29,419 bases of DNA, taken from the IMG/VR virus record IMGVR_UViG_3300025852_000010, positions 1 through 29,419 of that record; one strand, given 5' to 3'. The translations under genes were made by a program, and so were the position numbers. The stretch comes from a virus. Taxonomy: Duplodnaviria; Caudoviricetes. Positions 1,299 through 27,178 of the stretch are shown here, in pieces. The notes beneath the pieces were generated by a model that made no database searches, had not been told where the DNA came from, and saw only the letters and a program-made list of their open reading frames with translations. How positions within the stretch are numbered: the first letter of the stretch is position 1; the number at the start of each line of letters is the position of its first letter.

Positions 1299-1976
1299 TT
1301 ACAAAAGTCTGCCGGCGAAGTCCATCGGGTGCTTCGCGTTCTTCGTCATATTGCACGTCGGGCAGGCGATGACGAGGTTTTCGGGACCGTTGGAGCCGCC
1401 GAGAATGACCGGCGTGACGTGATCGACGTGGTACTTGTCGAGTTTCTTCTCACACCAGAAGCACTTTCCGCGCTGGCGCTCGTACTGAGCCGTCACGTCG
1501 GCGGCGGTGTGAGTACCGCCGTTGCCCTTCTGGCGGGCTCTGCGGTTGCGGGTATAGGCTGCGCGGCTCTCTGTGTGTTCGGCTCGGTAGGCCGCCATCT
1601 CTTCGCGGTGTTCGGCGTACCAGGCCACATGGCGGGCCGCTATTTCATCGCGGTGTTCGACGCGGTAGGCAACCATCTCTTCGCGGTGCTCGGCGTTGTA
1701 GGCGGCCTGGTAGGCGAGAACCTCGTCGCGGTGTTCGGCGCGCCATGCCGCTCGCTCCTCGCGGTGAGTGGCGCGGTAGGCGGCGTCGTTGGCCGCCTTC
1801 TCTGCGCGGTGAGTGACGTGGTAGTCTGCCCAGTAGGCGGCCTCGCAGGGCTTGCACTGATACCGGAGGCCAGACTTGCTACGCTTGCTAGCGTGAAAGT
1901 ACCCCCGGGTGGCGGGGTACTCGTGGCCACACTTGGTGCAGGTCTTGAGCGGGGGTGTGGTACAATCGGGTTGCAT
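1299..1976 (-). CDS. Free-standing HNH endonuclease (Zn module + helical repeats + HNH)
   Basis: KTCTKCG..PAT N-terminus, YRAEHREE-type repeats, C-terminal CFWC..YHVDHVTP...GSNGPENLVIACPTCN. Confidence 0.9.
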   Translation of the reverse strand: MQPDCTTPPLKTCTKCGHEYPATRGYFHASKRSKSGLRYQCKPCEAAYWADYHVTHRAEKAANDAAYRATHREERAAWRAEHRDEVLAYQAAYNAEHREEMVAYRVEHRDEIAARHVAWYAEHREEMAAYRAEHTESRAAYTRNRRARQKGNGGTHTAADVTAQYERQRGKCFWCEKKLDKYHVDHVTPVILGGSNGPENLVIACPTCNMTKNAKHPMDFAGRLL

Positions 1977-2080
1977 CGGACTCCATTTCCGCTGCCACGC
2001 CCCCGGAGCCGCAAGCTCGCGGGGGCACTCTGTAGGGTGAACCGCCCTATACCCTACACCTTATCGGGGGGCCGTGTCAA
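1955..2080 (-). promoter_or_regulatory. HNH leader cassette copy A
   Basis: TTGACA(2080-2075)-N18-TAGGGT, hairpin GCCCCCGCGAGC..GCTCCGGGGGC, RBS GGAG, antisense TGgTACAAT at 1958-1966 on +. Confidence 0.65.
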
Positions 2081-4868: not shown

Positions 4869-5618
4869 CTAACAGAGCCTGCCGCAGAACTCCATCGGGT
4901 GCTTCGCGCCCTTACTGAGATTACAGGCCGGGCATGCTATGACGATGTTCTCTTTGCCGTTGCTACCCTTCCCCACAAGCGGCGTCACGTGGTCGACGTG
5001 GTACTTCTTTCCGGTCTTCACGTCGCAGTAGAAGCAGCGGCCCTTCTGGCGCTCGTACTGCGCCCGAACGTCGGCGGCGGTGTGCACGCCGGGCGCATTG
5101 CGTTTGCGGGCGCGGCGATTCCGCCAGTGCGTTCTCGATTCCTCGGGGTGCGCGGCGGCCCATGCAAGTTGGTAGGCGGCGCGGTCTTCCACATGCGCAG
5201 CCCTGTAGACGGCCTGGTATGCGGCTCTTTCTTCGCGATGGTCCGCGTCGTAAGCAGCGTTGTAGGCGACTCTCTCCTCACGATGCGAAGCGTAGTATGC
5301 GGCCATATAGGAGGATTTCTCTTCGCGGTGGGCGGCGGCATAGGCAAGCTTTTCTTCACGATGAGCAACATAGAACGCGGCCTGGCGGGCGCTAATTTCT
5401 TCGCGGTGAGTGGCGTGGTAGGCTGCCTTATAGACTGCCGCATTCTCGCGGTGCGCGGCATAGTAGGCATGAGCGTACTCGCGCTTACATTCCTTGCACC
5501 ATGACTGGAGACCACCCGCATACCGCTCGTCGGCGCGGAAGAACTCCAAGGTAGCCGGGTGCTCCCGGCCGCACTTAGTGCAGGTCTTCAGCGGTGGTGT
5601 GGTACAATCAGATTGCAT
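4869..5618 (-). CDS. Free-standing HNH endonuclease, paralog of 1299-1976
   Basis: MQSDCTTPPLKTCTKCG, eight helical repeats, CFYC..YHVDHVTP..GSNGKENIVIACPACN; ATG 5618 after GGAG. Confidence 0.9.
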   Translation of the reverse strand: MQSDCTTPPLKTCTKCGREHPATLEFFRADERYAGGLQSWCKECKREYAHAYYAAHRENAAVYKAAYHATHREEISARQAAFYVAHREEKLAYAAAHREEKSSYMAAYYASHREERVAYNAAYDADHREERAAYQAVYRAAHVEDRAAYQLAWAAAHPEESRTHWRNRRARKRNAPGVHTAADVRAQYERQKGRCFYCDVKTGKKYHVDHVTPLVGKGSNGKENIVIACPACNLSKGAKHPMEFCGRLC

Positions 5619-5709
5619 CGGACTCCATTTCCGTTGCCACGCCCCCGGAGGTGACACTCGCGGGGGCAATTTCAACCTCCAGTATACCACACGGCGCGGA
5701 CGGAATCAA
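5597..5709 (-). promoter_or_regulatory. HNH leader cassette copy B
   Basis: TTGATT(5709-5704)-N17-TATACT with TG extension, same hairpin, RBS, antisense TGgTACAAT at 5600-5608. Confidence 0.7.
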
Positions 5710-7355
5710 AAGAACGCCGCCCGCTGCTTCTTCCTCCGCTGCTTCTTATCGGGAAGAGCCAGGTACGCGCGCCGGGCCATTCTGGAAAGCATCAAGGCGA
5801 TGAGGGCGTCTATCTTCCGCTTCGACTCCCTACTCTCTTTCGCCACGCCCACGCCCCAAGCGTTGGGGCGGCGACGAGCATTGTGGGCATGTTGCCGCAA
5901 GCGTGCGTCGCCGTCGTGACGGAAGACCTTCTCCGTGATCTCGTTGTGCGTGAATTCTGAGCCCTCGATGGTGAACAGCTTTTTTGTCGCTCTCATATCG
6001 AACGCGATGCGGTGTTTCATGGTCGCCGCGGCGCAAAGGTCGCGCCCCAAGTCTCTCTCCCATGCGTCGACGTAGCTCTCGAACGGGTGCAGGTCCGAGA
6101 AGAATGCCACCACGTCATAATGCTCGAATGCCTGCCGTACCGCGCCGTCTATGGCCTCGCGTGGAGCCTCGCCGCCCGTCTTAGCGGGGTCCCAAACTCC
6201 GAGCGTGAATACATACCCATCGGATATGCGGCAGCCGATGAGCGCCGAGTGGTCGTCGGTCAGGCTGCCGTCGAAGCCGAGGCTGATGAGGTCGCCCTCG
6301 TCGACCCTCAATGTCTTGTCTGCCAGGACGTCGAAGTCCTGCGGGCTCACGAATGCGTCTTCGGTGGCCACGATCTGATTCAGCCAAAAGCGGCGCGACC
6401 GTGAGGGCGGGTTCCGCTTGTCCATGATGGCCTGAATGATGCGCGGGATGTCGAGCCACGTCGCATCGCCGCGAATCGCGTCTATCGTCGCCGGCAGTGT
6501 CTCCGGGTCAAGCGTCGCATCCGGCGGGGCCTCAATCGAGTCGTAGAGGAAACCGACGTCGACGGACTTGCCGAGCACGATGTTCTCGTAAGCCTCGCGC
6601 GCAACCTGAGCCACCGACTCCTCGCCGGGTTCGTAAGCGTTCGTGATGCTAAGGGCGCGTGCCGCCCCGTCCGGTGACTTGGAGAGGTTGCGGTCAATGA
6701 CCGCGTCCATCTCGTGACCCTCGTTGCTGGACAACCAGTGATGAGTTTCGTTGCGAAGTACAAAAGTGGAGCGCGCGCCTTCCATCGTCCGCGGCGAACT
6801 CGTGACGGCTTCGATGCGCTGGGCGCCGTGGTGGGCATAGATGATTTCCTTGCCCAGGTCGATCTCGTACTCTTTCAGCGCCGCCTTCGTGAAGTAGGCG
6901 GGAAACAGGGTCATCGTGTTCTTCGTCTGCGTGATGCTGACGGCGGCGGTCTGTACCCATGCCTGCGGATGCGACACGCCGGCCGGGTGCTCGTTACCCC
7001 ACGGGTCTTTGACAGTCCGGCCGCTCGGGTCTATGCGGCAGGGGCCGACGAACTCGAAGGCGCAGAGCGTGGCACCGAGAGGGTCCTTGCCCCAACCCTT
7101 CAGCCGTTGCAGTACCCCATCTCGGTACAGAAACCGGCCCGCGTCATCGACTGCGTACCAATGCAGAAGGAATCGCGCTTGCTCGGGCGTGTACCGCCAC
7201 GGCTTCCCGGTTTCGTGCTGCAGCCATTCGCCAGCCCACTGGATGGCCTGCCAGCCAAGCGAACGGCTGGGGAATATCCACTTGCCGTCTTCGCCGCGCT
7301 GCCAGGTGGGGCCGATGCAAACGGGTTCAACCGCCGAGGGCGTCGCGGTACTCAT
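5706..7355 (-). CDS. terL: Terminase large subunit
   Basis: Walker A-like QRLKGWGKD, VLRNETHHW, RFWLNQ, nuclease GFDGS..DHSAL, KIDALIA. Confidence 0.95.
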   Translation of the reverse strand: MSTATPSAVEPVCIGPTWQRGEDGKWIFPSRSLGWQAIQWAGEWLQHETGKPWRYTPEQARFLLHWYAVDDAGRFLYRDGVLQRLKGWGKDPLGATLCAFEFVGPCRIDPSGRTVKDPWGNEHPAGVSHPQAWVQTAAVSITQTKNTMTLFPAYFTKAALKEYEIDLGKEIIYAHHGAQRIEAVTSSPRTMEGARSTFVLRNETHHWLSSNEGHEMDAVIDRNLSKSPDGAARALSITNAYEPGEESVAQVAREAYENIVLGKSVDVGFLYDSIEAPPDATLDPETLPATIDAIRGDATWLDIPRIIQAIMDKRNPPSRSRRFWLNQIVATEDAFVSPQDFDVLADKTLRVDEGDLISLGFDGSLTDDHSALIGCRISDGYVFTLGVWDPAKTGGEAPREAIDGAVRQAFEHYDVVAFFSDLHPFESYVDAWERDLGRDLCAAATMKHRIAFDMRATKKLFTIEGSEFTHNEITEKVFRHDGDARLRQHAHNARRRPNAWGVGVAKESRESKRKIDALIALMLSRMARRAYLALPDKKQRRKKQRAAFF

Positions 7356-8023: not shown

Positions 8024-8052
8024 TTGCATCCGTTACGGCAGTGTGATACGAT
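8024..8052 (+). promoter_or_regulatory. Sigma70-type promoter giving a leaderless mRNA
   Basis: TTGCAT-N17-TACGAT with TG extension; ATG 8059 begins 7 nt after the -10. Confidence 0.65.
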
Positions 8053-18905: not shown

Positions 18906-19517
18906 TCAAAACATCACCCCCGCCCAGTCCATGGGGTCCTTGGCGGCCTTGCTGCCGTTGCACTTGGGACAGGAAAGCACGATGTTCTCGGGGCCGTTTG
19001 ACGACGTGCGGTCGCCGGCCAGCGGTATCACGTGGTCGACGTGGTGGCCGCCCTTGAGACTCACTGCGCAGGCGGGATTCACCTGGCGCCAGAAGCACTT
19101 GCCGTGCTGGCGCTCGTACTGAGCCTTGACGTCGGCCGCGGTGTGGGTGCCGGTGGCGTTGCGCTTGCGGGCTTTTGCGGCGCGGTTCCGCGCGGTCTTC
19201 TCCTCAGCGTGCTCCGCGTGATACTCGTGGTTGTACGCGGCAGTCTCTTCGCGGTGCGCTTGGTAGTACAGGCGGTCATACTCGGCACGTTCTTCGGCGT
19301 GCGCCGCGCGGTACTTGCGCTTGTGCTCGGCAATCTCTTCGCGGTGCTCCGCGTTGTACTTGCGCTTGCGCTCGGCACTCTCTTCGCGGTGCGAAGCGTG
19401 GTACTTGCGGCTGTGCTCGGCACTGGCGGCGCGACACGCCACGCAGCGACAGCCGTGGTTCGGGTACAGGTATCCGCTCGGCGAGCCGTGCGCCCGCAGT
19501 AGGTTGATTCTTCGCAT
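18906..19517 (-). CDS. Free-standing HNH endonuclease (alternative start 19559)
   Basis: HGSPSGYLY..GCRCVACR, five 15-aa repeats, HHVDHVIP..NGPENIVLSCPKCN. Confidence 0.88.
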   Translation of the reverse strand: MRRINLLRAHGSPSGYLYPNHGCRCVACRAASAEHSRKYHASHREESAERKRKYNAEHREEIAEHKRKYRAAHAEERAEYDRLYYQAHREETAAYNHEYHAEHAEEKTARNRAAKARKRNATGTHTAADVKAQYERQHGKCFWRQVNPACAVSLKGGHHVDHVIPLAGDRTSSNGPENIVLSCPKCNGSKAAKDPMDWAGVMF

Positions 19518-19523
19518 ACGTCC

Positions 19524-19553
19524 AGCATGGGCGGCCAGATTGGGGACGGAGGA
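19524..19553 (-). promoter_or_regulatory. 13-bp box promoter/operator copy 2
   Basis: TCCTCCGTCCCCA-N11-CATGCT-N6-ATG. Confidence 0.55.
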
Positions 19554-19555
19554 GC

Positions 19556-19972
19556 TCATACCGCCATTTCCTGCTGACCGAACTCCCCGAGTATCTCAAG
19601 GCAACCCGCGTGTACCCGCCGCTCCCAGCAGGCTGAGCAACACCCGCTACCGTTGATGATGTGGTCGCGGGCTAAGTACGTGATGCAGCCCGGCGTTCCG
19701 CAGCGGCGCGGCGGCAGGGTCACCCACACGGGGCCGCTATCCGGGCTGTAGGTCATCACGTAGAGAGCGCCATCGTGGCTGCCCATGATGTAGGCGTTGA
19801 TGTTGACGATCCTGAATCTCTGGCGGCGCAACGCGGCGATGGCTTTCTGCACCTTCTTGCGGGTGTTCGGTCCCCACTCCATGCCGGCCATCTCGGCCAG
19901 CGCGAATGTGGTGCAGGGACGGACCGCGAGTGCGGAAACGATGGTGGCGCGGAGGGTGGCGGATGCGCTCAC
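19556..19972 (-). CDS. Putative winged-helix + Zn-finger protein
   Basis: TTFALAEMAG..RKKVQKAIAALRRQ; CGTPGC..CCSAC. Confidence 0.6.
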   Translation of the reverse strand: MSASATLRATIVSALAVRPCTTFALAEMAGMEWGPNTRKKVQKAIAALRRQRFRIVNINAYIMGSHDGALYVMTYSPDSGPVWVTLPPRRCGTPGCITYLARDHIINGSGCCSACWERRVHAGCLEILGEFGQQEMAV

Positions 19973-23692: not shown

Positions 23693-23925
23693 CGCAGACC
23701 TGCGACAGTTGCCAGACAGAACTCAACGACGAGGTGAAGTTCTGCCCAGAGTGCGGGCAGGGCGTGGGGCAGGAGGTCGAGGCGCCGGTCGAGTGGCCGC
23801 CGCGCATGCCCGAACGGCCCCGGCCGCGGATATTCGGGGCGGTGCTCGGGGCGCTCATAGTGTGGTCGATCCTTGTCGGCGTCCTCGCGATATTCGTCTT
23901 CGCGCTCGCGAGTGCCACGCCGTGA
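23689..23925 (+). CDS. Zn-ribbon membrane protein
   Basis: CDSC..KFCPECG plus C-terminal TM helix; ATGA coupling. Confidence 0.7.
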   Translation: MTQTCDSCQTELNDEVKFCPECGQGVGQEVEAPVEWPPRMPERPRPRIFGAVLGALIVWSILVGVLAIFVFALASATP

Positions 23926-23926
23926 C

Positions 23927-23968
23927 GAAAAAAGGCCCGCGCCTGCCGGAGGAAGACAGGACGCGGGC
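23927..23968 (-). terminator. Terminator between convergent units
   Basis: - strand GCCCGCGTCCTG...CAGGCGCGGGCC followed by T7. Confidence 0.65.
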
Positions 23969-23989
23969 GTGGCCGGGGAGTTGGCCGGG

Positions 23990-24250
23990 TTACCGGGAGA
24001 TAGAATCTAAGGGTTCGGTCTTTGCGCTAACTCCTTCTATCAGGTTGGTCGTCGCGACGGTCGGGCCGCTCTTGGCGATTGCTGAGTGGAATGAAATTCC
24101 AGTCAGGACGCCGACGACTAGGGTGACGATCTGTACGTACACCGAGTCGACGGACACTACGCCGGCTGATGCCAGCACGCCGATGATGCCGAGGATGATG
24201 GTGCCAAGTACCGATTTCTTACCGTCCATGAACGCGATGATTGCCTGCAT
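23990..24250 (-). CDS. Holin-like two-TM protein
   Basis: MQAIIAFMDGKKSVLG.. two TM helices..HSAIAK; RBS GGGAGG. Confidence 0.6.
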   Translation of the reverse strand: MQAIIAFMDGKKSVLGTIILGIIGVLASAGVVSVDSVYVQIVTLVVGVLTGISFHSAIAKSGPTVATTNLIEGVSAKTEPLDSISR

Positions 24251-24482
24251 GCTACCTCCCTTCGTGTTAGTGATAACTCCTGTTTGTATAAGCAGCGGGT
24301 TCCCTCCGGCGTCCTTCGGCTCAGCCGAGACACCGCAGCCAGCTTCCCGCGCACCGCCTAGCCCCATGTGTCAATTAAGTAGCTGGCCCAAGTGATCTGC
24401 TAAGCGCCCACATCTCGATAAGTCGTGTCTAACTAGAACGCTGCCCTCAGTTAGCAACAAGTGTGGACACTTTTGTCCGTGG

Positions 24483-26632: not shown

Positions 26633-27178
26633 TCAGCCCGTGATCTTGTCGAAGTGGTAGAACTTGCCGGGAAGCTCCACCAGGCCGGCGTGAAACAGCC
26701 TATGGCAGGTAGCGCAGAGAACGACGCACTTCTCAAGTTCCGCCATCACCCTCGGCCATGGGTAGTTCTGCCAGTGGTACATCGCTATTTCTTTGGTGGC
26801 CGTATCGCGATGGTGGAAGTCGAGAGCTTCGTAGTGCTCGTCGTAGCCACAGACGGCACAGCCGCGAGCCAACTTGTAGTCGCGGAGAACATCCGCCTTC
26901 TCGTGCCGACGAGCAGTGTTGTATGCCCGTTGGCGGTCTTGCGCCCCGGGCTTCTGACGCCGCGCTTTGGCGACCTCCGGGTGGTCCCGGTTCCACCGCG
27001 CTGCACGATCCTTTTTCGGCTCCGGGTTGGCCCGATACCGAGCGCGGTCCTCTTTGCGAGAGCAGTCAAGACACCGCGCCTCAAGTCCACACTTGACCTG
27101 CTTGCGCAGCCCGAAGAACTCGCTGGTCGCTGGCTTGACCTCGCCACACTTGGAGCACGTCTTCAAGCCGGTCATCAC
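26633..27178 (-). CDS. HNH endonuclease
   Basis: KTCSKCGEVKPATSEFF; GCAVCG..ALDFHHRD..KCVVLCATCH. Confidence 0.85.
   Translation of the reverse strand: MMTGLKTCSKCGEVKPATSEFFGLRKQVKCGLEARCLDCSRKEDRARYRANPEPKKDRAARWNRDHPEVAKARRQKPGAQDRQRAYNTARRHEKADVLRDYKLARGCAVCGYDEHYEALDFHHRDTATKEIAMYHWQNYPWPRVMAELEKCVVLCATCHRLFHAGLVELPGKFYHFDKITG

Follow-up and report, generated by a model that had tools for sequence, protein, structure and literature searches.

The window analysed here, 29,419 nucleotides long, is the entire 29.4-kb viral record, and a Pfam search identified in it the gene set of a temperate phage, including portal, VG15, tyrosine integrase and amidase. The best relatives of its portal protein lie in actinobacterial phages (~41% identity), which makes an actinobacterial host likely. 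Three free-standing nuclease genes, A, B and C, are found on the minus strand (Table 1), and a cassette of about 90 bases is common to the starts of all three. Proteins A and B, both HNH endonucleases (PF01844), are 52% identical, whereas the alignment of C with A is weak; we confirm the claim of a preliminary description of this DNA that copy C heads a gene of another nuclease family (PF02945). The N-terminal module of C resembles the N-terminus of a further HNH gene at 18906-19559.

Table 1. Genes and cassette features in the window, with the basis for each assignment.
Feature	Position	Strand	Basis
Gene A, free-standing HNH endonuclease, 225 aa	1299..1976	-	PF01844, E 3.8e-9
Copy A, putative antisense extended -10 (TG-n-TACAAT) in codons 4-7 of gene A	1958..1966	+	exact 13-mer and family enrichment; presumed promoter activity
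Copy A, predicted antisense RNA: P2 1973-1995, CAC linker, P1 1999-2026, short tail	1973..2034	+	fold z -3.4; covariance model R1 57.6 bits (training member); predicted ends
Copy A, candidate sense promoter TTGACA-18-TAGGGT	2051..2080	-	read directly from the sequence; fails strict sigma70 scan
Gene B, free-standing HNH endonuclease, 249 aa, paralog of A	4869..5618	-	PF01844
Copy B, putative antisense extended -10 inside gene B	5600..5608	+	exact 13-mer
Copy B, predicted antisense RNA: P2 5615-5637, CAC, P1 5641-5667	5615..5675	+	fold z -4.1; R1 match (training member)
Copy B, sense promoter TTGATT-17-TG-TATACT	5681..5709	-	passes sigma70 scan
Gene C, free-standing endonuclease VII family nuclease, 222 aa	8639..9307	-	PF02945, E 1.9e-19
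Copy C, putative antisense extended -10 inside gene C	9292..9300	+	exact 13-mer
Copy C, predicted antisense RNA: P2 9308-9333, CAC, P1 9337-9365	9307..9373	+	fold z -2.0 (longer stretch z -3.1); R1 match (training member)
Copy C, candidate sense extended -10 (TG-A-TATACT)	9386..9394	-	read directly from the sequence

We found the 13-mer GTGTGGTACAATC exactly on the plus strand at 1955, 5597 and 9289, as had been described; with up to two mismatches it has 4 matches in the window against 0.30 expected by chance (0/100 shuffles). The three-copy alignment contains CCCCGCGA..CCGGGG.CGTGGCA.C and the D-C-T-T codons in every copy, and over 127 nt copies A and B share 83% identity. A second hairpin, P2, carries the ribosome binding site (RBS) in its loop and has CGTGGCARC as one of its arms; the earlier account of a first hairpin followed by CGTGGCA(A/G)C therefore holds in the alignment, but the stretch belongs to P2 and is not a free linker. 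In the predicted fold of copy A, the P2 loop carries the anti-RBS CUCC. The three units fold with z-scores of -3.1 to -4.2 on the plus (antisense) strand versus -0.3 to -1.7 on the mRNA strand, and just 3 U are present in the 8 nt after P1. Of the sigma70-type promoters previously assigned to each gene, that of B (TTGATT-17-TATACT) passes our scan, whereas those of A and C fail it; in copy C a TTGACG lies 31 nt from the sense extended -10, too far for a -35. The predicted antisense start of copy C is the A of its ATG, so that the RNA would cover the RBS and little of the AUG. The proposed coverage of both thus stands, as a prediction, for the RBS and hardly for the AUG in copy C.

Additional features of the window were also observed. 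Two further nuclease-like genes, at 18906-19559 and 26633-27178 (-), are without the cassette and abut upstream genes; the former joins a C-type N-terminus to an A/B-type HNH end and so demonstrates module shuffling. A lone plus-strand gene of 201 aa (8059-8664), preceded by a promoter-like GTGTGATACGATC at 8041, converges on gene C, and its product has no Pfam match. In copy A, P1 and the candidate sense -10 are separated by an inverted repeat at 2031-2058, TGTAGGGT / ACCCTACA, which is a possible operator or third hairpin. The covariance model R1 gives exactly three strong matches in the window, copies A, B and C, which are training members, and its search found no fourth full copy there. 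A degenerate cassette-like stretch at 23921-24020 (+; R1 16.5 bits, E 0.0014) has a P1-like hairpin, GTGGCC and A...TA at the expected distance, without a start codon; on the minus strand it forms a hairpin ending in a U6 tail and following the ORF 23990-24367, so the stretch is a terminator or a cassette remnant.

Across sequence collections, the cassette consists of two hairpins, the RBS, the start codon and then a backward-facing -10 in codons 2-7. A first search pattern, limited to the P1 base and the GTG behind it, with nothing downstream of the GTG included, matched at least 121 stretches in viral sequences (~440 estimated). A slightly stricter pattern matched at least 120 stretches in bacterial genomes (~870 estimated), mostly Streptomyces and Solirubrobacterales by name, and a variant with a compensated base stem, representing a second subfamily, matched at least 121 further viral stretches (~240 estimated). 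R1, built from 89 members, gave 4-13 matches per genome in 5/5 Streptomyces genomes. In cultured Arthrobacter phages the cassette lies ahead of annotated HNH and endonuclease VII genes; phage Persistence (L402) has it in front of HNH gene 41. Using blastn, copy A returned nothing from annotated phages, the L165 query did find matches, and plasmids gave short partial matches only. A 16-mer scan produced mostly chance matches, with 7 loci being members by eye besides the near-identical relatives of this phage. The exact 13-mer with CAT directly after it occurs in 78 viral stretches, accompanied by the cassette only in those near-identical relatives; it was therefore rejected as a family mark, and the special role earlier ascribed to it is not supported. 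Five copies, from Thermoleophilia/Anaerolineae bins (L277, L301, L307, L310, L330), keep both hairpins and the antisense -10 and have no ATG, GTG or TTG at the expected place, three of them having ACG or GCG instead.

No Rfam family reaches its gathering score in the window, and none matches the three copies by E-value. The earlier statement that this is no named RNA family is accurate for the core family, which is without an Rfam match, but has to be qualified by a named sibling, scr4677 (RF02673), described below. The int-alpA RNA (RF02996) gave a single sub-threshold match, at L146 583-650, off the cassette and with another fold, and the combination of Rfam match and three-stem junction that would mark membership was not found. 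We found no description of the core family in the literature searched, mostly non-subscription full text; the candidate lists of large RNA-motif screens may hold one. Core motif sequence strings retrieved no relevant paper text and no supplement rows, and the accessible parts of PMC8388888, PMC8269248, PMC3765725 and PMC5415839 contain nothing bearing on it. Overall, the cassette is a real, widespread and uncatalogued variant of a known control logic.

When examining the genes headed by the cassette, we observe nuclease-associated Pfam matches in 23 of 92 viral genes (61 without a match; about a third truncated) and, in the second subfamily, in 30 of 60 (the first 60 of 93, those with long flanks), whereas in bacterial genomes only 1 of 52 headed genes is nuclease-associated. 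The other bacterial genes comprise 3 tyrosine integrases, 3 DUF6415, 1 ArdC-N and 44 small unknown proteins, while viral cargo also includes a primase-polymerase, a helicase and a RhuM protein. In Streptomyces, the headed gene is often divergent from an XRE regulator (XRE-DUF5753 in 6 of 10 picked by eye). Nucleases are the commonest named phage cargo and the cassette is not nuclease-specific, contrary to the initial restriction to such genes. Its portability, also proposed there, is borne out: cassettes that are 89-95% alike head proteins without a BLAST link.

We examined the backward -10 in 229 distinct hits with enough flank, after duplicates and short flanks were dropped; the upper stem pairs in 210. 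In 177 of these 210 hairpin-forming hits, TAnnnT is present on the antisense strand 26-38 nt past P1; the three windows beyond give 2, 1 and 3 of 210, and the non-pairing hits 0/19. Since the 26-38 nt interval was chosen post hoc on this first set, the second subfamily was used as a held-out test without the pairing filter, and there the -10 lies at the fixed distance in 107 of 112 (0, 1 and 2 in the next windows). Among called gene starts, 151 of 168 with a cassette have the -10 versus 6 of 214 others at the same loci. At the cassette starts it underlies 95 distinct tripeptides in all three frames (133/15/3), so the DNA, and not the DCTT peptide, is conserved; it is kept in 50 of 56 protein clusters, a count inflated by truncated proteins and made up of related sequences that are not independent. 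G occupies positions -14 and -13 in 66% and 53%, respectively. A DCTT peptide conserved with free third positions, named beforehand as grounds for abandoning the idea, was not seen; for instance, a relative of gene C (L290) keeps cassette and -10 while encoding HRST. Judged from these comparisons, the antisense -10 is a DNA-level constraint, in agreement with the conservation of the 13-mer region first noticed in this phage, and it places a conserved antisense -10 inside the first codons, as in repressors of the SymR, sar and RNA-OUT kind. In 95 of 151 members its offset implies an RNA that begins roughly at the A of the initiation codon and would thus barely cover the AUG.

Next to the -10, the structure itself points to the antisense strand. 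The upper P1 pairs, none of which the search pattern specified, show covariation among all four Watson-Crick types. In an alignment of 60 distinct members, which is model-fitted and whose fit leans towards structure, 97.8% of P1 cells are paired and 7 of 10 pairs are changed on both sides, and the covariation exceeds all 500 shuffles (0/500) and all slid controls; the early observation of a kept base stem under a varying yet pairing apical part thus withstands a covariation test. Among non-canonical cells in the first three variable P1 pairs, those reading A.C on the mRNA (G.U on the antisense strand) number 36 versus 1 reading G.U on the mRNA, and the held-out set gives 19 versus 0. This bias makes it likely that the antisense RNA is the molecule that folds. 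In 165 of 177 cases the entire unit forms the better structure in antisense, as does P2 in 162 of 177; P2 is better than shuffled in 177/177 on the antisense strand and in 79% on the mRNA. The predicted RNA measures 61-69 nt, within the ~55-75 nt first proposed. Its U-rich tail averages 3.4 of 8 versus a background of 1.4, with none on the sense side. The antisense-strand structure is complementary to the RBS, as in repressors of the SymR, sar and RNA-OUT kind, although no more than 93 of 174 predicted folds leave the anti-RBS mostly unpaired.

These results bear directly on leader control of the T4 type, in which P2 on the mRNA would hide RBS and start codon and the antisense -10 would be incidental. 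Hairpins that hide the RBS do control T4 homing endonucleases, according to the available passages of PMC2988022, and P2 also forms on the mRNA, as the 79% above indicates. Against this, the wobbles are A.C mismatches on the mRNA, so the same counts (36 versus 1, 19 versus 0) give no sign of structure selected on that strand, and an incidental -10 would not hold at 151/168 versus 6/214 starts. We regard this explanation as very improbable.

Transcriptional interference, by competition or collision between the two facing promoters and with the two-hairpin RNA as no more than a terminated by-product, also makes sense of part of the data. A facing sense -10 is present in 68 of 103 viral members, so that in most of them facing promoters lie ~70-90 bp apart; on the antisense strand P1 looks like an intrinsic terminator; and extra scr4677 supplied in trans has a weak effect (see below). 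A terminator alone, however, needs neither a P2, whose antisense fold beats shuffled sequences throughout, nor a fixed length of 61-69 nt and a CAC linker, and we consider interference unlikely.

In our preferred reading, which is probably correct, a cis-antisense RNA lies over the start of the headed gene and is predicted to mask its ribosome site. A promoter in the first codons would make a two-hairpin antisense RNA of ~60-70 nt (~65). Comparison across members supports the first two steps, namely an antisense-strand TAnnnT -10 whose distance from P1 is fixed whatever the peptide, and a covarying P1 whose wobble pairs are G.U on that strand. Production of such an RNA, starting inside codon 2, has been demonstrated only for the sibling scr4677/as4676. 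P1 and the modest U tail would end and stabilise the RNA, P2 would display the anti-RBS in its loop and seed pairing with the mRNA, and the resulting duplex would lower translation, keeping nucleases, integrases and replication proteins low. The unit moves from gene to gene and takes the first few codons along.

The RNA could instead act via a protein or in trans, with the P1 base, bulge and CAC linker forming a binding site and similar cassettes cross-regulating each other. Bulge and linker persist across covarying stem variants, copies A and B are closely alike, every Streptomyces genome searched has several model matches, and a few copies are without a start codon. Part of the invariance stems from the search patterns, however, P2 always mirrors the gene's own RBS, and inspection of gene contexts revealed no partner protein; this alternative is quite unlikely.

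RNA reads placed on a Streptomyces copy (L384) did not reach its cassette. On L403, a contig from a paralogous cassette region has depths of 712 and 487 in two runs versus ~5-50 for other contigs; as contigs show neither strand nor ends, this is not taken as evidence of expression. At 5107-5204 (-) of L403, two raw-read runs show an abundant ~95-nt RNA with sharp ends, a tRNA-like cloverleaf fold and a UCC loop, which is unrelated to the cassette.

The closest known relative is scr4677 of Streptomyces coelicolor, which the accessible parts of two papers describe as a ~70-nt antisense RNA at the start of SCO4676 (PMC3896431, PMC2602773), with northern blots from three Streptomyces species (PMC3896431). 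In the supplement of PMC4895711, the antisense transcription start is 5108124(+) and the SCO4676 start 5108129(-), which places the former five bases inside SCO4676 and within codon 2. Table S6 of PMC4681348 gives as4676 as 5108124-5108202; the mapped RNA is 78 nt long and starts at offset +5. Published scr4677 probes yielded four orthologs, all members of Rfam RF02673 (4/4 match, 111-244 bits). Like the cassette, they have a P1 hairpin, a CAG/CAC linker, P2 over the RBS, an ATG and an antisense TAnnnT at offset 13, and the window cassettes share this two-hairpin antisense layout over the RBS with a -10 in the first codons. Unlike in the core cassette, P1 has an extra internal loop, and scr4677 is described as a single locus tied to SCO4676, whereas the cassette heads many genes. 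The orthologs score 7.8-8.6 bits under the core model (<9), RF02673 has no match in the window nor in 11 core loci, and no SCO4676 ortholog lies beside the window cassettes, whose genes encode HNH and endonuclease VII proteins. By score in either direction, scr4677 is not a member of the core family, and its data therefore transfer by shared layout and not by family membership. Furthermore, RF02673 models 246 nt of the mRNA strand, while the papers describe an RNA of ~70-78 nt on the opposite strand.

From likeness to the orthologs, we take primer 4676-1IN to begin at the G of the start codon. If so, as4676 would start 8 nt below the -10, so that the RNA would cover RBS and AUG. The 2008 and 2014 papers, in the parts available, reported a 5' end by RACE that lies 14-15 nt ahead of the ATG (PMC2602773, PMC3896431), for which reason RBS pairing was not expected there; the position of this end corresponds to the P2 loop, and cleavage may have produced it. 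Upon ~3-fold overexpression of scr4677, SCO4676 mRNA was similar or slightly reduced and a read-through transcript was raised; no phenotype was reported, the outcome was RNase III-independent, and SCO4676 protein could not be followed (available text of PMC3896431). These data count against a strong silencing role. Additionally, the accessible Table S6 of PMC4681348 lists two RNAs antisense to gene 5' ends, as3252 (82 nt) at SCO3252, a replication initiator, and as4618 (76 nt) at SCO4618; both start 10-11 nt upstream of the annotated gene starts and are possible further members.

The cassette offers a candidate explanation for the low level of free-standing homing nucleases, and of risky genes in general, in actinobacterial phages, for which we found no control in the literature searched. 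It also gives scr4677, whose mode of action had been left open, a family context and a candidate mechanism, and suggests that its 5' end by RACE is a processed end. Furthermore, the cassette marks true start codons, which is useful in phage annotation. A broader and rather doubtful proposal is that actinobacterial mobile DNA uses the cassette as an all-purpose, exchangeable module for taming genes, which would graft onto any dangerous one with a few codons and whose RNAs would cross-silence similar cassettes in trans, so that resident copies (4-13 per Streptomyces genome, three here) would confer a sequence-specific immunity to homing nucleases, integrases and replicons arriving from outside, with scr4677 as a domesticated member.

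P22 sar, acting on ant, and IS10 RNA-OUT, acting on the transposase, are likewise short antisense RNAs that lie across the site where translation of a mobile-element gene begins. Both are enterobacterial and each is bound to one gene, whereas the cassette RNA heads many. Rfam searches gave no match to sar or RNA-OUT; P22 sar is named in the accessible part of PMC5415839. T4-type homing endonucleases are restrained in translation by leader hairpins that sequester the RBS (PMC2988022, PMC2677866, in the passages available), and these stand, as the cassette hairpins do here, where nuclease genes begin, both free-standing and intron ones; however, it is the mRNA that folds there, and a late promoter relieves the restraint, with no antisense RNA in those passages, while the cassette fold is selected on the opposite strand. 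In Escherichia coli, SymR masks the symE ribosome site (RF01809; PMC1891008, as far as accessible), as is proposed for the cassette RNA. RF01809 has no match at the cassettes and one weak match elsewhere (5838-5914, E 0.45), and no SymE target gene was found. SymR is tied to one toxin family, whereas the cassette heads many unrelated genes. Overall, the regulatory logic is already known from the SymR/SymE type, and the core family has no Rfam model.
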